Below are positions 47,211 to 64,000 of a stretch of DNA of 64,000 bases, piece by piece. The number at the start of each line of letters is the position of its first letter. Positions within the stretch are counted from its first letter, which is position 1. This DNA is from Candidatus Bathyarchaeota archaeon (GTDB lineage Archaea > Thermoproteota > Bathyarchaeia > 40CM-2-53-6 > RBG-13-38-9), in the NCBI GenBank assembly GCA_963807605.1, contig CAWECG010000003.1:192001-256000 (forward strand), in the 5' to 3' direction. Both the position numbers and the translations under genes were made by a program. The notes beneath the pieces were generated by a model. The model searched no databases, was not told the DNA's origin, and saw only the letters and a list, made by a program, of their open reading frames with translations.

Positions 47211-47328
47211 GGCATTAAGGCATCCGAGGTGCCCGATTTATGTTTGCTGTTCTGGGTTCTGTCATCTGCACGACCTCCTAGATTCACTGTTTCTGTTCAG
47301 GACAAGAGTGTATTGCGTGTATGCAGAA

Positions 47329-49613
47329 TTAGTCTCTAATTCTAAGAGATTGAGAAGATCTCGGTGATCCTTCGGTGAATGAAACGTTAGGTTTACTGAA
47401 TCCGAATGGCGGAAGCATAGTCTCGACGGCTGAGAGAAGAAATCGACGTAGGCTTCAGAATCATACGTTTGACAGCCCATGCATAATTCCAATGGTAAGG
47501 CACGTCTGTTTGAAACTTTGCTTCTGTTATTTGTTATTATGTAGTTGACGGATTCGCCTGCATTTGGTGCAGCTCCTTCTTGCACTAGATGTTTGGCGGC
47601 TACTGCTTGGAGAACATCGTGCCTGTACTCATCCAAGCCTTGAGAGAGCCGTTTCCGAATAGCTAATTCCTCTAAGGGCACGTTTCCAGATCGCAAGGTA
47701 CTAACGAATCTGTTCACGATGTCATGAGCGGACGGCAGTTTCTCATAGAAATCCCTGGTGTCTTCAGCATCGGAGAGCATATTCATGATCTCTTGTATAC
47801 ATTGGTCGATGATTGGAGGTGTGTCCTGTCTTCTCGTGGCGATGCCACGATCCTTGATCTTTCCGTCTCTAAAGACGCCGTAGTATCGATTGAGCACTGG
47901 GATGTTCCTATGAGTCTTTGAAGACGGGAAAACGATCCATCGATAGATTCCCTCAAACGATATGGGAAGATGTGACGTTTCTTCGATCTCAGCTTGAAGT
48001 CTTCGATAGTCTTCCTCGGTTGCACCTTCCTTCTTCAGCCATAATGAGTCGACGATTCCGTGTATCAGCCTGAATCCCTTCGCCTCTGCAAGATGAGCTG
48101 CATCTTTCAGTATTCGTCGGGCAAATGCACAGGTGGCTATGTGAGCGTCGATCCTGCCGAAACGAGCGTTCTTGAATCCCAAGTATCCGAATGCGCAGAC
48201 CAGTATCCACTTCAATGCTGCCTGACGCATCTCATAGATTCCACGTAGGGCAGGGTCGGTTGTGGTCTGCTTCAACCTCTTGTATAGTCGTCTCTTCTGT
48301 AGAAGATGTTGAAGGCTTCTTGGAACGATTCCTAATCGTTTCTCGCAGATATTGTAGTCTAGTTCAGGTACACGATTCTTGGAGTCCGGACAGCATTTAC
48401 ATCGAACTGTCTCGCCGCTCAGATTCTTGGTGAGCATAATCATAGGATAGAGGGATGTGAAGTCTAGCTCACCGACTGATTCGTGTAAACCGATCGTGGA
48501 CTCGTAATAGAATCCCCCCCGGTCAGCAATGAGGAGCTCGCTGGCGGTCTTCAATTCCTCAGCGTTTGTCTTTCTCCACGGGATTAATACGCCTATACGG
48601 GTTGCTTCGTAGAGTTGTGCAGAGGTCATGCTGGTTCCAATCGTCGTATTGATTACACGTTGAAGCGGCATTCTGCATAGCCGAGCTACCTCAATTGAAC
48701 CCGGCAGCCTACAATCTCTGTAGAGCATCGAGTCCTCACAGTCAATGTGGATCCGCCCAAGTAACCGGGTCGGCGTCGCCCTGTAGTGAACTCTCCCGTA
48801 ACTCGTATAACTTTGACCACTTTCAGTAGAGGCTCTAAGTGAAGAAGGCTCGCGGCTAAGAACAAACCGATTCGCGATATCATTCACCGATGCTCTGTGA
48901 GTAAGATAGGGGAAAAGGAAGCTGTCACCACCGGTCGTGTAGATTACATCTGGATCAAGCACTCTCAGAGTCTCGACAAGCCAGAGAAGTTTCTGTCGCT
49001 CATCACATCCTTCAGAGTGATGAACCTGATCTCTTGAGGTTAGTGTAATCGCTTCAATCGCGTCAGCTTTACCCGGTAACCTCCCCTTCTTCTGGATGTT
49101 TATCGACAAGGTAATTTCTCGAAGTGGTGGGGTATCATAATCAGTTGATTCCAAGTCATCAAGCAGTTCCCAACCGATGTTTTCACGGTTAGTTGTTGCC
49201 TTAACATATGCGAACGGAAAGATTCCCTTCTCATACATGTAGAGTTGACTTGGCTTCACATCCACATTGTAAAGTTCATACCTTTTGTGGCAGCCGAAGA
49301 CCAGTATTCTTTCAGCCAATCGTTCAGCTTCACTGACATTTTTGACTGGAATCTTAAGAACTGTGGAGGGGCCCTCGTCTTCAGGTTTGACGAGTCTCTC
49401 CTCGAAACTCATTCCCTCAATACGTAGTTTGTTGGTGAGGCTGACGATATCCCTGAAATCGCCGGCGACGTAGAAGCATTGCTGCCAGCTATCAACTAAT
49501 CGAATTGCTCGGTTGTCTTTAGTCTTTAGCCAGATAGCTATGCAGCCATCTTTAGGATATAGGTCAAGTATCCACCCTTCAAGGCGGCTGGTTAAATTTT
49601 TCGAGGAGACCAT
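47329..49613 (-). CDS. polB2: Family B DNA polymerase, PolB2 group; probable frameshift near 47441
   Basis: GWILDLY start, DFTSLYP, KWILVCAFGY, HGIVDS (PolB2 variant of YGDTDS); native-looking C-terminus LLSAVETMLPPFG lies in a shifted frame ending at 47329. Confidence 0.92.
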
Positions 49614-49860
49614 GGATCTGGTCAATCTTGTCGTAGAGCTCCTTCAAACGCTTGTGCTGTGAGAATAGAACTGAGAGGAACATGCCCTCTGTCTTGACTG
49701 GAAACGTGGCGGCTCCGGCAGCGGAAGCGTATCGTCGGCACTCATCCATCAGATCTTCGAAGATAGCGCGTTCATCGATGCGCAACGCCTCTTGGAACTT
49801 CTTCCAACGTTTGAACTCTTCTTCTAGCAGCATCCGCCATGAAGGAATGGTCCTACCCAT
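49579..49860 (-). CDS. Small alpha-helical PolB2-associated protein
   Basis: MGRTIPSWR..W..F..ALR..D/E..F; overlaps both neighbours. Confidence 0.85.
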   Translation of the reverse strand: MGRTIPSWRMLLEEEFKRWKKFQEALRIDERAIFEDLMDECRRYASAAGAATFPVKTEGMFLSVLFSQHKRLKELYDKIDQIHGLLEKFNQPP

Positions 49861-50797
49861 TGGTATCCGACTCCAAGAACTCCTCCAGTACCTTAGGCGC
49901 CGGCTGTTTGATGAGGAGGCGTTCTCCTGAACGTGTCGGATGCTTTTCAAGAACGACCCTTGTCGAGTGGCCTCGTTCCTCAAATCTTAAGACAATGTTG
50001 ACTCTTTGTTTGACCACATGTAGGAAAGAATCTGATGTTTTCTCATTGAAGCTTGTTGCTAAGACTATAGATCTTTCCAGTCTAGCTGTGGCCACTAATG
50101 AATTGAGTGCAGTCTTGAGTAGGCAGAGGCTCTCGTCGGAGCGCACATCAGGGTCACGATATAGTTTGACCATATCAGAAGCGATGATAAATTTGATCCC
50201 TAGTTTAGGGACTGCTTCAGGCAACATTTGAGCGATAAGTGAGGTTAACTGGTGACAAGTGAATGCACGTGAAACAAATATGTGATCCAGAACTAGGTCT
50301 TGATCTAGTGAGAACCGTTCCGCATACTCCGCTGCGAGATGAGGATCGAAGGTGTTTCCTCCATCGATAAAAATGGCTTTGGAGTCGAGTCCATCATAGC
50401 GAGGGCCAAGCTGCGTTCTGACGCACAGGAGTAAGGAGGCAGCCAGACACTGCCATGAGCCGTAGAGAAACACCACATGTCCAAGGCGTAGCCCTCCTAG
50501 GAATCGGTCGAGTCTAGGATCGCCAAACAATAGAGAAGGTTCAACCTGGAGCTCACTCGCTTTGCGAAAGGTCACTGGAAACTTAAGCTTGGGGAGAGAA
50601 TATTCAACGGTAAGCAGGTCAGCGAATTGAGGATCATCCGACTCAACCTGGCACCATCCAATATTATTCAAGAGGTTCGCTCTGCATGTTGGACAGGTTG
50701 AATTTAGTGACAATCGGATCCTGACAGGATCCACCGAGCTCAGTGATCTTAGAAGGCATGAGCCACATTCATTGCAGACGTATTGATAGAGAATCAA
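49853..50797 (-). CDS. Inactivated RadA/RecA-like protein with N-terminal zinc finger
   Basis: LDRFLGGL, FIDGGNTFDP, SRAFTCHQL; Walker A degenerate; CNEC..CPTC; start uncertain. Confidence 0.85.
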   Translation of the reverse strand: MILYQYVCNECGSCLLRSLSSVDPVRIRLSLNSTCPTCRANLLNNIGWCQVESDDPQFADLLTVEYSLPKLKFPVTFRKASELQVEPSLLFGDPRLDRFLGGLRLGHVVFLYGSWQCLAASLLLCVRTQLGPRYDGLDSKAIFIDGGNTFDPHLAAEYAERFSLDQDLVLDHIFVSRAFTCHQLTSLIAQMLPEAVPKLGIKFIIASDMVKLYRDPDVRSDESLCLLKTALNSLVATARLERSIVLATSFNEKTSDSFLHVVKQRVNIVLRFEERGHSTRVVLEKHPTRSGERLLIKQPAPKVLEEFLESDTNG

Positions 50798-51053
50798 GAT
50801 CTTCAGCCCTATTAACCGTGAACGGGGAGGTTTTCGGCCTCCAGAGTTAGGCGCAGCGCTAGATACGCTTGTAAAAGCGGGAGGATAATCTCCCGCTGAT
50901 GAAAGAGCGACAGACACTTCTGCATAGACATCCCCAAAGAACAGAGGCGCCTTCAAACTAAAACGAGAGAGATCTGCAAAACTATTCAGCCAAATTCTTC
51001 CTACCCGCTTGACGATATCAACGCTTAAGTTTCCGCAGACAAATTTTTGATCG

Positions 51054-52244
51054 TTGTTCTGTATGCCACAGATTTTGTTTGGAACGTGTGGTTGGAGCTA
51101 TGCAGAATGGGAGGGCATCCTTTATCCGCATAAGCAGAGCAAGCTCAAGCAATACTCCTCGATATTCCCAACTGTAGAGATCGACTCCACATTCTACTCC
51201 CTTCCGAGAGATGGCATCGTTCTAGGCTGGGTTAGGTATACACCTCCGAGTTTCGTATTCTCAGCAAAACTCTCCCAGACCATAACCCACAAGAAGGCAC
51301 TTGACACCGCACGAGGAATCGAACCAGATCTGGATCAATTCTTGGAGACTATGGGCCCAGCCATCGAGGCAGGAAAGCTGACCTGTGTCCTCGTTCAACT
51401 TCCACCATTCTTGAGGTTCAACGCACAGAGGCTCGAGGCATTTCTAAATCTGTTGCCTGACCGACCAAGTTTCGCAGTTGAGTTCAGACACCAATCTTGG
51501 CTGCGCGACGAGACCTTCAAGCTCCTAGAGAGATACAAAACGGCCTACACCATTGTTGATGAACCTGCACTTCCTCCAGAAATCCATGTGACATCAAATC
51601 TTGCATACGTACGGTGGCATGGCAGAGGCAACAGACCCTGGTTCAACTATAGATACTCAAAGGAACAACTGCAAGAATGGGTTCCAAAAATCAAAGAGGT
51701 AACTGAAAAGACAGAGCGGATTCTAGGTTATTTCAATAACCATTTTCACGGATACGCTCCTGAGAACTGTCTGCAGATTATGCAGATGCTCGACATTCAG
51801 ACGCCAAGGGGATCCGAAGCTCTCAACAAAATAACTTCACACAAAGAGGACAGAGAACCTGCAAAAACCAGCCTTGAGGCATGGACAGGACCGGTCGCTG
51901 AGAGGACAGTCGAGAAGCTGCTCCTGAAGTTTACAGAGGCAGATATCATCAAGAACGCCCGAGCTATACCCGATAAGGATCTGTCTCTTCGCCAGGATAA
52001 CAAGCGAGGTTTAGCAGCCTACATCGGACAAACAAACGTGACCATAGATCTTGAAGAGCACACAATTATCCACCGCTGCCCATTTTTTTTCAAAAGCAGT
52101 TCTCAAAAACGCTTCTGCCCGCACATAGCTAAACTGTTCTTAGCTATCAGCCCCGAGAGGGCCAGAACTGTCTTATCACTTATCAAATCGAACGTAGAAA
52201 GTTGGAAGTTTGAGTCCAAATTCTCGGTTGAGTTTCCAAAATAG
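51054..52244 (+). CDS. DUF72 family protein with C-terminal SWIM-like zinc finger
   Basis: GTCGWSY, VEIDSTFY, VQLPP, AVEFRH, YVRWHG, YFNNH; HRC..FCPH. Confidence 0.9.
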   Translation: MFCMPQILFGTCGWSYAEWEGILYPHKQSKLKQYSSIFPTVEIDSTFYSLPRDGIVLGWVRYTPPSFVFSAKLSQTITHKKALDTARGIEPDLDQFLETMGPAIEAGKLTCVLVQLPPFLRFNAQRLEAFLNLLPDRPSFAVEFRHQSWLRDETFKLLERYKTAYTIVDEPALPPEIHVTSNLAYVRWHGRGNRPWFNYRYSKEQLQEWVPKIKEVTEKTERILGYFNNHFHGYAPENCLQIMQMLDIQTPRGSEALNKITSHKEDREPAKTSLEAWTGPVAERTVEKLLLKFTEADIIKNARAIPDKDLSLRQDNKRGLAAYIGQTNVTIDLEEHTIIHRCPFFFKSSSQKRFCPHIAKLFLAISPERARTVLSLIKSNVESWKFESKFSVEFPK

Positions 52245-54293: not shown

Positions 54294-54506
54294 TACGAGA
54301 TTACTCCTGTCAAATCGGAAAATGTCCGCATGGCTAGGTTCTACAGTTGTTCGCGCCAGGGCTAAAGTTCAACGAAGCAGACATTTAGACCTTGAGACAA
54401 CAAACTTTTGGAGATACGTAGGTCGCGGACTCGTGTAGAACAAGCGATGGTGTGCTGCCGCTCGGGTTCATACGAGTGCACAGGGAGAGCCTTCGTTAGC
54501 CAACGC

Positions 54507-55632
54507 TAGCCTCTTGCAATATTCTTGGGCTTAACATGAAGATGTATACGTGTTTTTGATCATAAGATCGATGAGCTTTACACCCACTCATGCCGTTTCT
54601 GGTGAAAAAGAAGTGAGCGAGTGTAAGGCTCTGTATGATCTGTTTCAGGCTTTGGATTTAACGTTTGTAGAACAAGTCTTAGAAAGAAGCTATGGAAGAA
54701 GAAGCAGCGTCGGCAGACCCCATAGAAATTTACTTGGAATGTTCAAAGCAGAGCTTGTCAAACGGCTAAGACACATAGAAAGCTACGAGGAACTATACCG
54801 ACTTCTATGGAGCGACGGTGAACTCTGCAAACTCTGCGACATCAAGGAATCAGAGAATCCATATCACCCATCAATACTTCTGAGGTTTCGACGTAGAATA
54901 GGCCCTCAAGGATTTCACCGCCTCATGAACCGTCTGATCAAACAGCTTGACCACATGGACATTCTGGACTCTGAAATCCTAGCGTTAGACGTCACATTCA
55001 TCAAAGCTTACAGTCGAAGAGATCCTCACAATACCCAGTGTGGATTATCCGATTCTGAAGCCAGATTACGAAAACAAGGTAGAAACGTAATCTTAGGCTA
55101 CGGCATACACCTTGCTGTAGACACCATCAGCGAGATGCCGCGGGCAGTCACCATAGAACCTGCAAATGTAAATGAGAAAAAAGTTGCACCCCACCTCCTC
55201 CATAAAGCATTGAAGAAGAAACATAGGTGGAAGAGCATGACTGCAGACTCACAATACTCCAGCGAAGCTTTCAGAGACAAGGCAAGATCTATGGGCATAG
55301 AACCAATCATACCTTACCCTAGAAACCAGATGAAGGGCAAACAGGTTCTACGAATCGACCGGAAGTTCCGCTCACACGGACCTGCCCGTCTGAAACAACT
55401 GTATAAACGTCGATCCTCAGTGGAGAGAACATTCTCAAGACTCAAGACACACTTCGGATTGTCTCAGCTTCGAACACGCGGCCTAAGAAACGTCATATCA
55501 CATGTACTTCTCTGTCTGCTGGCTCTACTGGCAACTGCCTTATCCGCGATCAAGCACGGACACATCGATAAAATGCGGTCACCAATCCAGTTCACAAAAT
55601 TAACACAGAAAATATAATATTGCAAGAAGCTC
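54507..55632 (+). mobile_element. Insertion sequence (IS1182/IS5-like), 1126 bp, 17-bp imperfect TIRs, 4-bp TSD ACGC
   Basis: Left TAGCCTCTTGCAATATT vs right (reverse complement) GAGCTTCTTGCAATATT; ACGC at 54503-54506 and 55633-55636. Confidence 0.85.
54550..55617 (+). CDS. DDE transposase
   Basis: GRP N-terminal domain, ALDVT, GYGIHLAVD, ADSQY, YKRRSSVERTFSRLK. Confidence 0.93.
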   Translation: MFLIIRSMSFTPTHAVSGEKEVSECKALYDLFQALDLTFVEQVLERSYGRRSSVGRPHRNLLGMFKAELVKRLRHIESYEELYRLLWSDGELCKLCDIKESENPYHPSILLRFRRRIGPQGFHRLMNRLIKQLDHMDILDSEILALDVTFIKAYSRRDPHNTQCGLSDSEARLRKQGRNVILGYGIHLAVDTISEMPRAVTIEPANVNEKKVAPHLLHKALKKKHRWKSMTADSQYSSEAFRDKARSMGIEPIIPYPRNQMKGKQVLRIDRKFRSHGPARLKQLYKRRSSVERTFSRLKTHFGLSQLRTRGLRNVISHVLLCLLALLATALSAIKHGHIDKMRSPIQFTKLTQKI

Positions 55633-55691
55633 ACGCGCGGTATGATCCTTAAATCGCACGGCTCCCAAATATTAGATGTGAGTGATAGCTC

Positions 55692-56021
55692 TTGCCGAGA
55701 GTGCAATTCATCTCTACTGAGCAACTTCTCGAGATGAAGGCCAATAACAAGAAATTCAAACTTGTAGAGGTCTTACCGGAAGAAGAGTTCAAGAACGGAC
55801 ATATCCCTGGAGCCGTCAACTTGCCTCTTGACAAGTTAGAGACTCTTGCAAAACAGCATCTAAGGAAGGCCGATACGATTGTTGTTTACTGTGGAAGCTA
55901 CCAATGCCAAGCAAGCACAAACGCGGCTAGAACTCTCTTGAACATGGGTTTTAGGAAAACGCTTGATTATAAAGCAGGCAAGAAAGGATGGCTTCATACG
56001 GGCTTCGAATTAGAGAAATAA
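55692..56021 (+). CDS. Rhodanese-like domain protein
   Basis: GHIPGAVNLP, VVYC..C.AS, GKKGW. Confidence 0.9.
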   Translation: MPRVQFISTEQLLEMKANNKKFKLVEVLPEEEFKNGHIPGAVNLPLDKLETLAKQHLRKADTIVVYCGSYQCQASTNAARTLLNMGFRKTLDYKAGKKGWLHTGFELEK

Positions 56022-56077
56022 CTTGTGCATGGGTCGTAGCGCGCGCTAGACTAGGTTCCAGCGCGTGCGTCGTCAAT

Positions 56078-56446
56078 CTAGAAGGTAATCACTCTGCAAG
56101 AATTGTTCTTGAGAAACTGTGTTAAAGGCTCTCCCATGTACTTGACTTCTATCCCCAACGCTTCGAGATCGTCGGAGACTCCATACATGTCTGAACACCT
56201 TTTGCAAGCCATTAATTTAACACCGATCTCTTTCATCTTGGGTAAATAGGCCTGCAGTTCTGTATCGACTGACATGAGTTTGGAAGAAGGACCCCATACA
56301 ATCAGGTTGACTTCTTTCCACCATCCCTTCAGCTTGGAGTTCAAGGTATACATGAACACCATCTTCATTGCTACTTCCCTATCTCCACTACTCCATACCA
56401 CTACAAGTTCTGATGGCTCTGTTGACTCTCTATCCATGTTTGACAT
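56078..56446 (-). CDS. DsrE family protein
   Basis: VVWSSGDRE, LIVWGPS, ACKRCSD..GV. Confidence 0.85.
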   Translation of the reverse strand: MSNMDRESTEPSELVVVWSSGDREVAMKMVFMYTLNSKLKGWWKEVNLIVWGPSSKLMSVDTELQAYLPKMKEIGVKLMACKRCSDMYGVSDDLEALGIEVKYMGEPLTQFLKNNSCRVITF

Positions 56447-56650
56447 CTCCCTCTTGTTCTCAATCTCCGAGGTTGTTGAACGTTGACTCTAAGTTCATAT
56501 TTAGTATTTCGCACGGCCTCTAAAGACTCGTGACCGCCTAGCCTGCCTATGTTCTTCTCAATCTTCAATCTATAGCGGAGGCTTTCTAAGCGCGCGCTGT
56601 CCATCTCAAAAGACTCTTAAGTTTCTCTACAATAGTGAGACCGAGTCGTT

Positions 56651-57052
56651 TTGACTATCGAGAAGGGTTTTGGTCCAGAATTTCAGGAAGTCGGTTCGCG
56701 TCTTTATCGAGCCGAGTATGGTGTGATCTCTATCGCAATTATCGGGTATCTTGCTTGGCGGGGCCTCTTCCTCGGCGGGATTAACGTCTTTCAAACAGTA
56801 TTTTGGGCGCTCTTTCCTGATTTGGTAGCCTTCATACCAATCGGTTTGTTGTCGAAGCGGCGAGAATGGCCCGAGTGGGGTGCCTACCTCTACAACGCGA
56901 TTCACAATGTGATCGCTTGGGGGCTTGTGTTTACGGTGATCTGGATTGTCCTCGGGGTTACAAGTTGGCCTCTATTTGGCTGGTTGGGACACATCACGGT
57001 CGATCGCACGATTGGTTACGGCTTGAGGAAGCTCCCTCCCAAGAAGTCGTAG
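56651..57052 (+). CDS. DUF4260-like membrane protein
   Basis: RAE, PDL, YNAIH, WLGHITVDR..GYGL. Confidence 0.8.
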   Translation: MTIEKGFGPEFQEVGSRLYRAEYGVISIAIIGYLAWRGLFLGGINVFQTVFWALFPDLVAFIPIGLLSKRREWPEWGAYLYNAIHNVIAWGLVFTVIWIVLGVTSWPLFGWLGHITVDRTIGYGLRKLPPKKS

Positions 57053-57232
57053 CCTCATTCTTTCTTTGCTAGGCCAAATGTTGCGCTAGGTCAAATCTTA
57101 CGCACAAGCAAGAGCGCGCGCTGAAATACGGTGCGCTCCATCTGACCATGATATTGAGATATGCATAGAGAGAGGAAAGGTTCGAACGAAGCCGTGGAGT
57201 CAACTTATTCATAACCGAACAAGTAGCGCGCT

Positions 57233-58348
57233 TCACATAGTCCGCTTTGACAGCAATGTCGCTATGGGCAAGAATATGATAATGCTGATTACGAGTATCA
57301 AGAGATCTACGGATACCGCATTAAAGTTCAATCCAAGATACATGATTCGTCTTAGAGCTTCGTTGCCGTAAGTCCATGGAAGCATTCTTGATATGAGTCT
57401 ACCACCGGCTGGCAGTATCTCAGGCGTCGTAAAGGCCCCTGACAATTGAAATAGCGGAAAGGTTATCGCAATTTCCATAATCGTCAAAGTCGCGGAACTC
57501 CGAATTCTCGAGGATATCATTAGACCTAATGATAATGTGAACATAGAGATCAGAGATGTGGTGAGATAAATCAGTAATATGTTGCCTTTGATAACCAAGC
57601 CATCAAGTATGAAAATTATGAGTACGAATGATGTCCTCATTGAGTTGATGACGAGAGCTGCGGCCATCTTGCCTCCATACATTGAGAAAAGATTCATGGG
57701 GGTCAGCACAAGCCGAGTAAAGGTGCCTCGCTCACGTTCTCTTGTTACAGCATTGACTGCATCATCAAAGGCGCCTAGAATTGTTATTATCCCGAGAAAT
57801 CCAGGCAATATATAATCCCCGTTGGCAGGGCGACCTGAAACTGGTTTCGGTTCCACATCAACAGATACTAACCTTAGATTATATTGAGCGTTTAGACTTC
57901 TCAATAGTTCTTGCGATCGCTCAAGGACCGCTCGATAAACCAAAAGACTTGCCGTAACTTTTGAGTTATCGGTTTGCAGCAAGACAAAAGCCACCTGAGA
58001 GGTGAGGAGCCTATTGCCAAAACCTTCCGGTATAGTCACTGATCCGATAGCTTCACCTGCTTGAACGATTTCCAAAGCCCGTTCCTGAGTTTGCACAAGC
58101 TGATCAACTCGAATATATTTGGAAATAGAAAGTTCATCGATGAACATTTTCGATTGAGCTGATTCATCTAGATCAGCTACGACAATGGGGACTGCATGCG
58201 GATCACGGAATGCTCCCGTGATCACAATAAACATACTTATCAAGAGTATAGGAAACATTATCGTCAGAGCTAGGGACAGTGGATCTCGGCGCAGCTGCTT
58301 CAGTTCTTTTTTTGCGATTGCGGCGGAGTCGCGAATAAGAGAATTCAT
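57233..58348 (-). CDS. ABC-2 type exporter permease
   Basis: KELKQLRRD, RERERGT, LSGAF.P. Confidence 0.9.
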   Translation of the reverse strand: MNSLIRDSAAIAKKELKQLRRDPLSLALTIMFPILLISMFIVITGAFRDPHAVPIVVADLDESAQSKMFIDELSISKYIRVDQLVQTQERALEIVQAGEAIGSVTIPEGFGNRLLTSQVAFVLLQTDNSKVTASLLVYRAVLERSQELLRSLNAQYNLRLVSVDVEPKPVSGRPANGDYILPGFLGIITILGAFDDAVNAVTRERERGTFTRLVLTPMNLFSMYGGKMAAALVINSMRTSFVLIIFILDGLVIKGNILLIYLTTSLISMFTLSLGLMISSRIRSSATLTIMEIAITFPLFQLSGAFTTPEILPAGGRLISRMLPWTYGNEALRRIMYLGLNFNAVSVDLLILVISIIIFLPIATLLSKRTM

Positions 58349-59508
58349 GCAACGAGCCTCTCGCGGGCTGCCTTGAGGATGAGATATGCTAGAGCGTAGA
58401 AAAGCACTATAGATAATCCGACGAATTGCAGCTGATAGGTTAGGCTTGTCAAGGGCTGACCTATAAGTACTGTAAGTTTTAAGATATCAATTGCGTACGC
58501 CCAGGGCAAGTAATTTGAAATTATTAAAGGAAGTCCTTTCATCAATACCTTATCTATAATAGAACCGCTGAAGGCAAACAGAAAGAGGACTAAGAAGAAC
58601 TCGATAATTACCACCGCGCGAATCCCGATCCCTAGCGATGATATGAGCAAGCCGAATCCCATTGTTAGGAGTGCAATCAGAACAGTAATGGCTAACAAGG
58701 TCAAGAGATCAGTGTTGATACGAGCACCGTATGCGAAAACAGCCAAGCTGAGAACAATAATTGTCCGAATTATGTTCAGACCCAAGTCGTACAGTGTCTT
58801 CCCAATCATTATGGCTCCAAGACTGACGGGACTTACGAGTAACCGCGAATAGGTACCTTCTTCATGTTCTCGAGACATGCCTCCAGCTATCTCATAGAAG
58901 GTTGCAAAGACTATTACTAACGACATGGTAATCGTCAATCCTAGTGCGAAGCCAGAAAACTGGGTTCCCTTCTGAATGACTTGAATTGTTGAGAAACCTT
59001 CTACTTCTATGTACGGAGACGGTGGAATTTGTGTTGCAGGATTGAAGGTTTGGACAGTTGCATTTACAGCTGAGAGAACTGCGGCGGAAACTCCCGGCGA
59101 ACCATCATCAATATACACAACAATGGTGCCTGTCTGATTTCTCATTAATCTATCTTGAAATCCCTGTGGGATGATGACGGCAGCATAAATCGAGCCTTTT
59201 CCCATGGCCTCAAAGGCGTTATCTTCACGGTATCCTTGAATTAACCTATTGAATTTATCTGACCTAACTAATGTTTCATACAGGCGACTTGAAGCAACAG
59301 AGTGATCTTCGTCAACAAACGCCATAGGAAGCGCGGCTGTCGGTTTGAAAGTCGTTCCTGCTCTTCCTTGTCCAGCTCCCAACGAGGCGGTGAAAAAAAA
59401 GGGGATAACTACAAGTGAGATAAGAATTGCGGATCGGTTACGCCTAAAGACCCAAAATTCATTAGTCATTACAGCAAATATGTCTCTTAATATTTGCATT
59501 TTAGTCAT
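58345..59508 (-). CDS. ABC-2 type exporter permease
   Basis: VDED.S, REHEEGT..LLVSP, FSG, LPW. Confidence 0.9.
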   Translation of the reverse strand: MTKMQILRDIFAVMTNEFWVFRRNRSAILISLVVIPFFFTASLGAGQGRAGTTFKPTAALPMAFVDEDHSVASSRLYETLVRSDKFNRLIQGYREDNAFEAMGKGSIYAAVIIPQGFQDRLMRNQTGTIVVYIDDGSPGVSAAVLSAVNATVQTFNPATQIPPSPYIEVEGFSTIQVIQKGTQFSGFALGLTITMSLVIVFATFYEIAGGMSREHEEGTYSRLLVSPVSLGAIMIGKTLYDLGLNIIRTIIVLSLAVFAYGARINTDLLTLLAITVLIALLTMGFGLLISSLGIGIRAVVIIEFFLVLFLFAFSGSIIDKVLMKGLPLIISNYLPWAYAIDILKLTVLIGQPLTSLTYQLQFVGLSIVLFYALAYLILKAARERLVA

Positions 59509-59556
59509 GCTACTTGCAATCCATTGAGGTATTACATTATGAGCCGTTTAGGTAGT

Positions 59557-60585
59557 TCATGTTCTTCGACGAGATTTCTCCGCAAAACGATCTATTTCGG
59601 CTTCACCCCCTGTTAACGAAATGAATGCTTCCTCAAGCGTCGGATCCTTCTTACCAATAGCTCTAATTCTTGCTCCTGAACTGACAAGCAAGCCTACAAC
59701 TTTGTCTTCAATCTCTTCGTCTTCTTTTCTGATACAAGTGATTCTGAGCATTGGGTCATCATACGTTACTTTACATACGCTAGCCAGATTCTGAATCTTC
59801 TCAATCGTGACGGAGTCAAGACGTGGTGAATCGGCTTCTATCACAGCCTGTTCAGACACAGTTTGTCTCAAATCAGCCGGCGTGCCTATCTGTATCAACC
59901 CGCCCTCAAATATTATTCCTACACGATCACAAATCATCTCAGGTTCTTGCATGTAGTGTGTGGTCCAGATGACTGTCACACCCTGATCGCAAAGATTCCT
60001 AGTAAACTCCCGGAGCGCCACCGCTGATTGAGGATCCAGACCAGAAGTTACCTCATCAAGGAAGAGGATCTTTGGATCATGGACAAGTGCTGCAATGATC
60101 ATTGCTTTTTTCGTCCAACCGCTGGAAAGCTCCCTTACTAGCAGCTTTGATCTCTCTCGGAAATTGAACATCTCCAAGAGCTCTCTTATCCTCTTCTGAC
60201 CCACCTCACTTGGTAGACCGTATAGTGTGCTGAGCAACTTCAGGTTCTCCTCGATGGTTAGATCCTTGTAGAGTGACACACCATCAGATACTACTCCGAT
60301 TCGGCGTCTAATTTCGGCGGCTTCCCGTCTGAGATCATACCCCGCTACTGTTGCGGTTCCTCTTGTCGGCTCAAGAAGAGTGCAGAGCATACGCACGCAG
60401 GTCGTCTTTCCTGCACCATTAGGACCCAGTAGGCCGAACAGTTCACCGGATTCAATATTGAGGTTTAGACTATCGACTGCGGTAAAATGTCCAAAGACTT
60501 TTGTCAGATCGACTGTTGTGATTGCGTTCTTTGGCAAAAAAAATCCCGTAGTTAAATCGACTTTGAGCCACTTTCCTGTGAACAC
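59557..60585 (-). CDS. ABC exporter ATP-binding protein (DrrA-like)
   Basis: GPNGAGKTT, LSSG, FLDE, TTHYM, TLEEAF. Confidence 0.93.
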   Translation of the reverse strand: MFTGKWLKVDLTTGFFLPKNAITTVDLTKVFGHFTAVDSLNLNIESGELFGLLGPNGAGKTTCVRMLCTLLEPTRGTATVAGYDLRREAAEIRRRIGVVSDGVSLYKDLTIEENLKLLSTLYGLPSEVGQKRIRELLEMFNFRERSKLLVRELSSGWTKKAMIIAALVHDPKILFLDEVTSGLDPQSAVALREFTRNLCDQGVTVIWTTHYMQEPEMICDRVGIIFEGGLIQIGTPADLRQTVSEQAVIEADSPRLDSVTIEKIQNLASVCKVTYDDPMLRITCIRKEDEEIEDKVVGLLVSSGARIRAIGKKDPTLEEAFISLTGGEAEIDRFAEKSRRRT

Positions 60586-60688
60586 TCTTAAACTTTTCTA
60601 GAAATAGTAAACAATGCGTTTGTTAAGAAAATCGCACATCCTACTCAAGACGGAGAGCACAAGCGCGCGCTATAACGTTTCCTTCACG

Positions 60689-61237
60689 TTACGGTGGTGG
60701 CAGGTTTTTTGAGACTGGACCGATATTGATCTGAACATATGTGCCTCCATCAGTGCCGTCTCCAGATGTAGTTATGGCAAGCCAGAATACGCGAGGATTG
60801 GCAGATGGAGAAATCGCAACGGTGAGCGTGCTCCTATAAAAGGTCACTCCGACTGGAGTTGGAATAAGCAATACGGCTACAGGAGAAAATCTTGTGATCA
60901 TAACTGGCAATTGAGTTCCTGCCACTGTTACTGGAGTCGCTTTCAGAGATAACTCAAGGGGATTACCGTGGAATATGCGTCCATACGTACCTGTTGTTAT
61001 CGTTATGTTAATGTCTTGAGTGCCACCTGAAAGTGGAAATGTGAGAGAAGGTTCTGACGCGACGGAATAGTTGAGATTTGCAAATGGGGCTAATGCAGGC
61101 ATTTGCGGCACCGATTCCTTCTTTTCCGTTAGGGTTCTAATGCTTGAGAATGAAAACAAAGAGACGGCTAAGGCGACACAACAGACGACAATCAGCGTCT
61201 TTCTACCAAGAAACATTCTTGCGGACACGTCGAGCAC
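60689..61237 (-). CDS. Membrane-anchored hypothetical beta-rich protein
   Basis: N-terminal TM, Ig-like composition. Confidence 0.65.
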   Translation of the reverse strand: MLDVSARMFLGRKTLIVVCCVALAVSLFSFSSIRTLTEKKESVPQMPALAPFANLNYSVASEPSLTFPLSGGTQDINITITTGTYGRIFHGNPLELSLKATPVTVAGTQLPVMITRFSPVAVLLIPTPVGVTFYRSTLTVAISPSANPRVFWLAITTSGDGTDGGTYVQINIGPVSKNLPPP

Positions 61238-61474
61238 ACGTTGCTGTAACTATTAAATAAAAGCTACGTAGCGCGCGCTCAAAAGAGAAGGCTTGACATA
61301 CTTTATGATGAATCTTCTCAAGCTTCTCCTTAATCTCGCCTAGCTCCTTGATGATCTTGCCTTGATTCGTATTTAGCATCTCAATTTCCGAATGGATACT
61401 ATCGAGACACCTCATCAAGCGCACGCTTGTCAAAAGCAGTCTTGAGAAGTGGGAAGTCTAGCGCACGCGTTCTA

Positions 61475-61627
61475 TCAGTAGATTTTTTCTACAACAGCTG
61501 ACAAAATGCAGAGACCTGCACCCAGGATGATAATTCTGAACAGAAAATTCTCAACTGCCAACAGCAATCCGACCCAAGCAAGAAAGAAGCCAACCCACCC
61601 AACTACATGAAATATCCACTTTTCCAA
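61475..61627 (-). CDS. 50-aa two-TM microprotein
   Basis: MEKWIFHVVGWVGFFLAWVGLLLAVENFLFRIIILGAGLCILSAVVEKIY; SD GGGGGTGA; below the ORF-track cutoff. Confidence 0.65.
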   Translation of the reverse strand: MEKWIFHVVGWVGFFLAWVGLLLAVENFLFRIIILGAGLCILSAVVEKIY

Positions 61628-61910
61628 CTGTATGATCACCCCCTATTCTACCAGTGCAGCGCGCGCTCAACATCCTGCATCGTCAAGTGGGTGTAGACCC
61701 TGACCATATGTGGTCTACGTCAGCCGAATAACTTCATAAATTCTCGGTCAGTAAAGAGCTTACAATCAATCGCTCGCGTATGCCTCATCATACGGGTCAT
61801 CGTCCTCTTCTTAAGGACCTTCCGGCCCATCCGCTTGACAAGCGCGCGCTACGGAAACTAGAGAGAGACCTCTGAAACCTGAGAAATCTTCTCGAGGAGG
61901 CTACTGAATA

Positions 61911-62480
61911 CTAAGGTGGCGCAGTCACTGTGATCGTCCATTGACAATTTGCCGAGTAGATTCTCAAGAAGTATGTTCCCGGTCCATCATAGACCATTAT
62001 GTGGTCTTCACCATAGCCGTCGTACGATGCCCCATCAATGAAAGCTCCTTTGCTGGCACCTTGCGGATAGACGAAAATCTCAAGGTTTACAGCCCGGGGG
62101 TCTGCTTTCCCACTTGTATTGAATTGGATCTTCCAGTAATCAGTTGGTATCGTGAAATTTTCAGTCATCTTTTCACCCGTTCCACTGAATGAGTATTTGA
62201 CTGGGGTCGAGGGCGGAGAAGCTGTTGGGATAACAAGAGGTGAAACAGTTGGTGTTTGAGTGACTGCTGGCCCGGAGACGGTTTGGGTGACTGTCTGTAA
62301 AACTACCACTTGACCTCGGGGAGCAAAACCGACGCCTACTGCAACTCCTATGAAAAATGCGATAAAGATGATTGCTAGAAGTTTCACCGTCATCTTTGAA
62401 GTTGAGGAGTTCCTCTGTGTGGTAGCTGTTACAGATGGTGTTGGGGAATCTGTCGGTGTCTTAGCTTCAGTCATGCACAA
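61911..62480 (-). CDS. Membrane-anchored protein with Thr/Pro linker and beta-sandwich domain
   Basis: TM, VTQTV linker, FSGTG..T..F..W, GPGTYFL. Confidence 0.75.
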   Translation of the reverse strand: MCMTEAKTPTDSPTPSVTATTQRNSSTSKMTVKLLAIIFIAFFIGVAVGVGFAPRGQVVVLQTVTQTVSGPAVTQTPTVSPLVIPTASPPSTPVKYSFSGTGEKMTENFTIPTDYWKIQFNTSGKADPRAVNLEIFVYPQGASKGAFIDGASYDGYGEDHIMVYDGPGTYFLRIYSANCQWTITVTAPP

Positions 62481-62688
62481 TACCGATTAACTAACTTAAC
62501 CAATAAAGACGATTTAGGATTTGTCATATCAGCAGAAGAAGAAGTCGGCGTGAGCTAGCAGCTTCCTTTGTTAAGATTCTCTAGTTGTTTCAGCTTCGCA
62601 AGCAGGTCGGGTCTGCAGCTGCACGGTTACTCAACCCGTGGTACTCTCTATCAACCACTTTGAAGCGGTTAAGCTTCAGGATACCCTC

Positions 62689-63702
62689 TCACGTGGAACC
62701 CTGCGTTTCCTTGATTACGTGCCGGATGTCATCTGCTGATAGGAATTCGCCGGTCTGCTCGACCTGGTGCACGAGTTCCACCAAGTGAGCATTCAACGGT
62801 GTCGGCACTCCCAACCGTCGACCCAACTGCACCACTTCTCCATTCAGGTAATCTATCTCCGTCGGTCGGCCACGTCGCAAGCTTTGCAGCGTTGAGCCTA
62901 ACAGCGTCCCATAGGGATCCATCCTTCGACCCATGCCTGCGAAGAAACGCGTAGCCAACCCCTCTGGAAGCCAAGCAAGCAATCGGAACAGAGTAACTGG
63001 CATTCCTGGTAGCGATTCCAGACGAACACCAGCCCTGTCGGTGACTCGAAAGCCCTCACGCATCAGGCCCACTGCAAGCCGGCGCAAGAAGGGGTCGGCA
63101 AAAACCTGACTCACGGGGTTGTTGGTTAAAGCGGGCAGAGCGTTATTCAGGTTAGCAATGAGCTTGAGCCAATGAGCCCCGCGCATATTGTCTGATACAT
63201 GGGTGGGGACAGCCTCGTTCAAAACAGAAGCGACTCTATCAACCTGCGCGTCCCGTGGCCCCATAGGGCGACCGATAACCAATGCCCCTTCATCAAGCAG
63301 CGTCACCCTACCAGCTGTGAGATACGTAGCTGCCAGCACCACTACGCCGCTGAGGATTTGGGGTTGAGGTAGCTGCGCAGCGACAAGTTCATCGCTGCGA
63401 ACTCCGTTCTGAAGCGTCACCAGCGGTACATCACTCAGAAAGGCCAAATTATCACGCATGGCGGTCATCACATCCTGAGTCTTAACAGTCAGAAGAACGA
63501 GGTCGGGTGTAAAGTCAAGCCTTTCGGCAGCCTTTACGTGAACAGTGAATTCCCCTCGGCAACCATCTACAAATAGCCCATTCCGGGAGATAGCATCTAC
63601 ATGCGAAGCGCGGCCAATGAGGACTACCTCCTGGCCCCTTTGAGCAAGCAGAGCTCCCAGTGCGCTGCCGATAGCGCCTGCACCGATTATTGAAATCCTC
63701 AC
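62689..63702 (-). CDS. panE: Ketopantoate reductase (PanE/ApbA) family protein
   Basis: IGAGAIG, LTVK, LQNG, WLKL, GSTLQS..GRPTEIDYLNG. Confidence 0.88.
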   Translation of the reverse strand: MRISIIGAGAIGSALGALLAQRGQEVVLIGRASHVDAISRNGLFVDGCRGEFTVHVKAAERLDFTPDLVLLTVKTQDVMTAMRDNLAFLSDVPLVTLQNGVRSDELVAAQLPQPQILSGVVVLAATYLTAGRVTLLDEGALVIGRPMGPRDAQVDRVASVLNEAVPTHVSDNMRGAHWLKLIANLNNALPALTNNPVSQVFADPFLRRLAVGLMREGFRVTDRAGVRLESLPGMPVTLFRLLAWLPEGLATRFFAGMGRRMDPYGTLLGSTLQSLRRGRPTEIDYLNGEVVQLGRRLGVPTPLNAHLVELVHQVEQTGEFLSADDIRHVIKETQGST

Positions 63703-64000
63703 GATCCAGCTCCCTTCGATACGACGAAATAGAAGACCTTGCTAACTATATGAGTTCGCCACCAACCCTTGACGATGCGATTTTGCTTGCGGTGCAAGCG
63801 ACGCGCGCGTAGAATGGTTCTTCAAGACAGGAGAAGAAAGAGAGCCAGAACTTAAGATCAAGCGCGCGCTAAGTTTTCTATCCTCCTAACACTTTCTTCG
63901 ATTGACGCTAAGCGTCAGTCATCGGGCCTAGCAAGACGTCAGATTCTGTTGGTGTTGTGTGTGCTCACCAGCTATGGCGCACACACAAAAAATCTAACGA

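Follow-up and report, generated by a model that had tools for sequence, protein, structure and literature searches.

The DNA analysed here, a stretch of 64,000 nucleotides from a Candidatus Bathyarchaeota archaeon (the window), carries between positions 55633 and 63870 a patchwork of unrelated genes parted by a short GC palindrome, AGCGCGCGCT, and its variants. A first, sequence-only reading took this palindrome for a recombination or uptake site at which gene modules are gained, lost or inverted. Comparison with paralogues and related genomes suggests a different origin, and we consider it likely that some break-and-rejoin events leave the palindrome behind as filler DNA, and that it is not a cassette recombination site. 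An alternating GC run of 8-11 nt, usually flanked as A...T, stands at deletions, truncations, translocations and short tandem duplications whose parents are run-free. The junction bases are missing from both parental ends, as in end-joining filler DNA. The palindrome does mark the joints of a shuffled, lineage-specific mosaic, and a minority of joints reuse a shared run, which leaves that part of the first reading standing; the cause that it proposed does not stand, since the related copy usually reads through run-free, joints fall inside genes and ends wander. The way in which Ku-less archaea rejoin broken DNA is largely open, and filler at joints points to an undescribed way of DNA-end repair, in which a near-fixed junction word leaves a countable record of each joining event.

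Single events present the filler most directly. At 61658 the window has eight bases, GCGCGCGC, where a paralogue (92% identical) has 252 bp; the parental ends in the paralogue are run-free. The DNA lost there is the tail of a tyrosine-recombinase gene, the C-terminal remnant of which (58 codons) fills 61666-61839; contrary to the first reading, the window thus does contain recombinase sequence. The run at 61418 removes the first codons of a coiled-coil gene, found whole at C1:135 kb of the host genome (G000, 2.65 Mb). Elsewhere in this genome, a MinD-like gene carries a 10-nt filler in place of 1279 lost bp (C3:842880), a 45-bp tandem duplication holds a 9-nt filler, AGCGCGCGC, between its copies (C5:32981), and the full 10-mer replaces 5 bases (C5:37838). 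In the ABC operon of the sister species G001, the same 9-nt filler is enclosed by a duplication of 9 bp, at a point where the window shows neither; ~840 bp lost in G000 relative to G001 are represented by an 8-nt filler. Additionally, the tautomerase module of G001 is flanked by runs missing from the window, one of which cuts inside the tail of a DUF72 gene. An ABC ATPase gene of G001 (L125:4072, G001:C81) has also lost 200 bp internally, at a 4-bp microhomology and without filler.

Over the whole genome, the ends of low-copy paralogous segments (273 in number) carry a run in one copy in 55 cases and in both copies in 3, compared to 6.0 one-sided and 0.03 shared in a shifted control, while four decoy word sets gave no enrichment at these ends. 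Neither copy has a run at the other 215 ends. When the comparison is centred on the runs, a related copy continues run-free at 121 flanks and shares the run at 37, about one third of the latter being ends of insertion sequences (IS); both flanks could be traced to run-free copies for 19 runs, of which 1 is an IS end. Internal gene truncations that end at a run number 15 of 186, with 2.15 expected, and the intact gene is run-free in 14. These truncations supply the polarity of the change, from an intact gene without a run to a truncated gene with one. A site-specific recombination site would exist on both partners, and the mostly one-sided runs thus disfavour a cassette site.

The module ends lead in the same direction. 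Seventeen contigs with homologues of the DsrE gene of the window (90-94% identical) were compared, and the neighbours of these genes differ (tautomerase, flavodoxin, V-ATPase and others). The run lies 4, 5, 8, 9 or 50 nt past the stop codon, or is missing, and upstream it lies at 88, 90, 101-102, 116 or 152 nt; since the offsets differ among relatives, the module ends wander. In one set of strains a new run, missing from the other strains, cuts the next gene. Genes move and joints bear runs, but the ends of the modules are not fixed. Comparison of the region with four public read sets returned short, divergent contigs only and no informative joints, and DsrE and PanE were not found with the queries used in the five relatives searched for each.

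The joints of G000 also hint at a grammar. Here the native sequence matches TAGCGCGC or TACGCGCG in register by one base or more at 68 of the 83 resolved joints, and 1-3 native bases overlap the GC run in 19 of the 83. Joints with neither an added base nor an overlap into the run number 33, and 31 of them have A as the native end; where an A has been added, the native base before it is T in 18 of 23 (P about 1e-6). This register suggests, as a lead and not as a result, that one paired 3' base serves for extension or annealing.

All eight exact copies and six variant sites listed by the sequence-only reading in this 8-kb region are present (see the table). Two further exact copies lie in the window at 339 and 7395; for the exact word, 0.00 copies are expected from 100 shuffles. 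The motif is not confined to the patchwork but spread over the genome, which contains 106 exact copies of AGCGCGCGCT against 1.4 expected from a second-order Markov model, and 298 copies of GCGCGCGC against 16.5. By home-made gene calls, 98 of 102 classified exact copies are intergenic and 4 lie in confident genes. A search around the 106 copies for conserved bases, arms, complementary flanks and flanking k-mers found none except a T at -1 (47%). The runs are clumped, with gene-sparse regions ~3x denser per intergenic kb, and their density, 0.55-0.75 per kb, is alike whether the genes beside the spacer are tandem, convergent or divergent. They keep no fixed distance to starts or stops, which upholds the earlier view that the palindrome is not a transcription signal. 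Runs at most 30 nt from starts are in deficit (15 against 36 expected) and those at most 20 nt from stops in mild excess (43 against 28), a pattern that would fit deletions trimming down to a stop codon yet sparing promoters. Promoter and terminator scans, with a bacterial promoter model, stayed at chance level, comparison with Rfam gave no match, and no long repeats were found in the region.

Within the host's family, the exact word reaches 16-119 copies in genera g1, g2, g3, g4 and g7, 0-5 in g6 and g8 and none in g5, and other families of the order have 0-10; GCGCGCGC has a maximum of 325 copies, compared to 0-1 in g5. As related genomes are not independent, this distribution is used as a contrast only. 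Base composition is not the explanation, since g3, g4 and g7 are motif-rich although the G+C content of their primase loci is only ~33%. The run-free g5 is depleted even in GCGCGC. An alternative word for the motif-poor genomes, TGCATGCA, was flat over 41 genomes, and no alternating palindrome was found in a 315-kb sample of G005. In another lineage, (TAGC)n tandem palindromes adjoin GC runs (L206:4648, 10311), possibly as a second filler word.

As for the mechanism, an end-joining polymerase would add a self-complementary (A)GCGC.. tail to both 3' ends; alternatively, such a palindromic oligonucleotide would be captured through 1-4 nt of microhomology. The tails would then anneal, the gaps be filled and the strands ligated and, because the tails are self-complementary, any two ends could be joined in either orientation. 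Selection would leave the runs chiefly in spacers and accessory DNA, hence their cassette-like look. Existing runs decay, slip by two bases and are sometimes reused as microhomology, and two IS5-like families later insert into run centres. By analogy with Sulfolobus PriSL, the best candidate for the enzyme would be a primase of the archaeo-eukaryotic class, either PriSL or a stand-alone PriS-like protein. We also entertain, with somewhat more doubt than belief, a stronger proposal: a dedicated, adapter-like repair in one Bathyarchaeia family, in which every end would receive the same self-complementary word from a single enzyme, so that unrelated ends are joined either way, driving gene loss and the capture of foreign fragments, with IS elements adapted to the scars. 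No such activity, the addition of a defined self-complementary tail by a polymerase, would have been described before, and it might serve in cloning. The contrast between presence and absence within one family helps in finding the enzyme, and the run is a precise product with which in vitro products can be compared. A literature search on this motif, on Bathyarchaeia palindromes and on fixed fillers found nothing relevant.

Several results weigh against the filler interpretation. Runs occur at only ~1/5 of all ends, and at 18 of the 62 ends with at least 95% identity; the two clean indels between the near-identical strains L206 and L207 both lack a new run. The paralogues stand in for ancestors without being true ancestors, and the ends are not fully independent. 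Plain microhomology deletions and other routes operate besides filler joints, runs also lengthen by slippage (two bases between strains), and two successive one-ended joins could mimic filler. The rule of A after T was seen in only 2 of 6 joints of a small, more diverged outside set. In addition, none of the genes tested tracks the motif, namely Ku, reverse transcriptase, PolX, PolY, PolB2, two extra primases and a methylase. Ku, the mark of a Ku/LigD route, is present only in G000 among 16 family genomes and was not found in nine other motif-rich genomes; no reverse transcriptase was found, and PolX is present in 2 of the 16 genomes only. PolY, its subclades included, also occurs in motif-poor families and was not found in G002, and PolB2 also occurs in the motif-free g5. 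The conserved stand-alone primase is in g5 and not in g3 or g4. No intact C5 methylase gene (PF00145) was found in five genomes, N4 and N6 methylases not having been searched. Intact copies of the accessory PriS-like primase (C3:72237-73127) are limited to g1 and one outside genome (G000, G001, G031).

What may remain as candidates are this accessory PriS-like protein and a lineage-specific behaviour of PriSL. The accessory gene is fragmentary in g3 and g7, and the five distant contigs that encode it divide into 3 rich in GC runs and 2 that are not. PriS itself is single in each of the seven near-complete genomes of the family, among them motif-free ones. Two stand-alone PriS-like primases exist besides it (L186:1498-2391 and L204:1273-2049), and the L204 type adjoins a DNA ligase gene in genomes of family f2 (L192-L194). 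Ku, an LigD polymerase and a frameshifted ATP-dependent ligase form one operon in G000 (L145, G000:C1:589267-592806). The window itself encodes, at 47262-52244 on the minus strand and divergent from a DUF72 gene, a PolB2-type polymerase with a small open reading frame and a RadA-like ATPase. This is the known archaeal PolB2 mutasome-like operon, also found in motif-free genomes; in G002, G003 and G015 its PolB2 is broken at one common position into two frames.

The closest competitor dispenses with dedicated synthesis: existing runs would be sticky or fragile sites, at which a break is joined to unrelated DNA by microhomology, and new runs would arise by slippage or copying. The native bases overlapping the run in 19 of the 83 joints are in its favour, as are a 725-bp indel that uses an existing run as a 12-bp microhomology, the slipping of run length between strains, and three DsrE relatives that have a common run at about -88 and different upstream DNA. 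Against this, the single-break events with known run-free parents would need two successive joins or an outside donor, and slippage alone predicts neither the depletion of g5 nor the richness of the 33%-GC genera; this account is unlikely. Less probable again is the pre-existing symmetric site of the sequence-only reading, at which an Xer-like or other recombinase would gain, lose and invert cassettes. Runs do flank unrelated modules in both orientations, the genome has five tyrosine-recombinase loci, and a few breakpoints carry the run in both copies. Yet one-sided cases outnumber shared ones by 55 to 3, joints lie inside genes, ends wander, and neither arms nor a flank consensus beyond the T at -1 accompany the run. 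Of four recombinases scanned, none reaches the IntI or XerA cut-off; the two best of the four score 41-42 bits with the integron integrase model TIGR02249, against a cut-off of 265.

The IS elements raise another possibility, that runs are footprints left when an IS5-like element doubles a GCGC target and is then excised, with or without an adjacent deletion. Two IS5/IS1182-like families, 7 copies each and 41% identical, have all 14 of their complete copies in GC runs, and their homologues in G001, G002, G008 and G012 have the same flanks. For the family of the window element, whose 4-bp duplication ACGC lies at 54503-54506 and 55633-55636, a 4-bp duplication fits 6 of 7 copies and a 6-bp one, which was rejected, 3 of 7. 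All 7 copies of the second family (L120:832-1935) lie in TAGCGCGCGCTA-type runs, with the transposase TGA at the same internal place; here 4 bp yields the exact 10-mer as target in 6 of 7, 4 and 6 bp being indistinguishable. A 4-bp duplication retained in AGCGCT would indeed yield the arrangement A-GCGC-GCGC-T. However, the reconstructed targets are already runs of 8-12 nt, the parents of filler joints have no GCGC at their ends, and at 61460, in one case, the window has the empty run where the paralogue has an IS end in its run. Furthermore, the window-type family was not found in the motif-rich g3, g4 and g7, although copies of an IS can drop out of draft genomes, and is present in the motif-poor g8. 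A footprint origin is accordingly given slightly less weight even than the cassette site, and we read the IS elements as probably targeting the runs secondarily, as REP (repetitive extragenic palindromic) sequences are targeted. Two IS200/IS605-type families of ~18 copies each, concentrated at G000:C4:480-720 kb, have no association with GC runs. The least probable of the alternatives, in our estimate, is a selected regulatory or chromosome-organising site, such as a terminator, a protein-binding site, a Z-DNA former or a HIP1-like methylation site. The intergenic position of 98 of the 102 classified copies and the mild excess near stops speak for selection, but start and stop distances are not fixed, spacer types are alike, depletion is confined to promoter positions, runs are not conserved at orthologous positions and no intact C5 methylase was found in the five genomes. 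Filler DNA remains the explanation that we prefer.

The features of the region are collected in the table. The earlier gene calls hold (rhodanese, DsrE, DUF4260, two ABC-2 permeases with an ATPase, and PanE/ApbA), as does the observation that the run at 57225-57232 abuts a stop codon. The site at 55633, described as a module edge, is instead the right-hand target flank of an IS. It had also been said that no copy lies inside the ABC operon, which is true of the 10-mer, although one short CGCGCG occurs at 58615; homologues of this operon were found in Bathyarchaeia records. No parent was traced for 5 of the 14 sites (56038, 57113, 60662, 61841, 63801). Immediately beyond the region, 63945-63990 is a member of a second dispersed repeat family, with sub-words GGTGAGCACACAC and CTCACCAGCTA in 37 and 69 copies. 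It has slippage-like runs of CA, GTC and GGT, resembles REP or miniature inverted-repeat transposable elements, occurs also in G001-G003, and clusters in the same accessory regions as the GC runs.

Table. Genes, mobile elements and GC runs at the right-hand end of the window, from left to right.
Feature	Coordinates	Strand	Run sequence	Remarks
IS5/IS1182-like element (DDE_Tnp_1)	54507..55632	+		17-bp terminal inverted repeats; inserted in GC run
Leftover of IS-targeted GC run	55633..55640	.	ACGCGCGG	
Rhodanese-domain gene	55692..56021	+		
Exact palindrome	56038..56047	.	AGCGCGCGCT	
Decayed run, 9 nt beyond DsrE stop	56060..56069	.	AGCGCGTGCG	Relatives L342-L348 read on without run
DsrE-family gene	56078..56446	-		Homologues 90-94% identical, with other neighbours and runs at other offsets
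Exact palindrome, 152 nt upstream of DsrE	56589..56598	.	AGCGCGCGCT	Relatives: 88-116 nt
DUF4260-like membrane protein gene	56651..57052	+		
Exact palindrome	57113..57122	.	AGCGCGCGCT	
Short run touching permease stop	57225..57232	.	AGCGCGCT	Decayed run at same place in G001; shared, probably inherited
ABC-2 operon, two permeases and ATPase	57233..60585	-		
Exact palindrome	60662..60671	.	AGCGCGCGCT	G001 similarity stops ~60 nt before
Hypothetical exported protein gene	60689..61237	-		No Pfam match
Exact palindrome	61270..61279	.	AGCGCGCGCT	Separate run in paralogue C1:135178, 8 nt further in
Coiled-coil gene fragment	61288..61418	-		97% identical to C1:135178-135309; 5' end lost at 61418 run
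One-sided run	61418..61427	.	AGCGCACGCT	Paralogue reads on without run
Run common to paralogue C3:49070	61460..61469	.	AGCGCACGCG	IS end sits in paralogue's run
Membrane microprotein gene, ~50 aa	61475..61639	-		Paralogue C3:49080-49232
Exact palindrome, filler junction GCGCGCGC	61658..61667	.	AGCGCGCGCT	Stands for 252 bp of paralogue; parental ends run-free
Tyrosine-recombinase C-terminal remnant, 58 codons	61666..61839	-		One internal stop; runs at both edges
Exact palindrome, other edge of recombinase remnant	61841..61850	.	AGCGCGCGCT	
Hypothetical membrane-anchored protein gene	61911..62480	-		
Ketopantoate reductase (PanE/ApbA) gene	62689..63702	-		
Other-phase run	63801..63810	.	ACGCGCGCGT	
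Exact palindrome, one-sided	63861..63870	.	AGCGCGCGCT	Paralogues C3:555617 and C4:447674 read on without run

Among known systems, the runs recall several and coincide with none. Like integron attC cassettes, archaeal ones included (bioRxiv 2022.02.06.479319), and pdif modules, unrelated accessory genes are parted by a repeated site; here, however, there is no long structured site, no arms, no fixed ends and no IntI, and the site is missing from the parents. The ~28-bp site of Xer/dif and pdif, with two recombinase arms on both partners, is likewise not seen. Cassette-like arrays in archaeal accessory DNA can be leftovers of repeated deletion and not integrons, which calls for caution. HIP1 of cyanobacteria is also an over-represented GC-rich palindrome of ~8 bp with a patchy distribution across lineages, but coding DNA contains it frequently and in conserved form, and it is linked to methylases (PMC5861425, PMC4390886). 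The runs, in contrast, keep out of intact genes and show turnover from one relative to another, and no intact C5 methylase was found in the five genomes. REP sequences are IS insertion targets (PMC1525189), and both they and the runs are dispersed intergenic palindromes offering a safe target to specific IS families. REP is a 20-40-bp hairpin, whereas the runs are of 8-12 bp without arms, originate at joints and receive DDE IS5-like elements with a 4-bp duplication; the RAYT transposase was not searched.

Closer likenesses are found in DNA end joining. The inserts made by TdT, Pol mu, Pol theta and the LigD polymerase are random or copied from flanking DNA. Like these N-nucleotides, fillers and templated inserts, the runs consist of new bases, accompany deletions, duplications and translocations and go together with microhomology, but they form a recurring self-complementary word limited to a lineage, and Ku does not track them. 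Ku/LigD non-homologous end joining is not matched, Ku being confined to G000, where it lies beside a frameshifted ligase, and not found in nine other motif-rich genomes. In Sulfolobales, PriSL uses terminal transfer and microhomology rich in GC to join ends, annealing 2-4 GC pairs, and it repairs breaks in vivo, where mostly 1-2-bp indels of variable sequence are left (PMC3333859, PMC12019639). PriSL end joining (PADT) and the process proposed here are alike in being archaeal and Ku-independent, with terminal addition making a G/C microhomology and annealing over 1-4 nt. They differ in that the product here is a near-fixed palindrome of 8-11 nt and the enzyme a candidate only.

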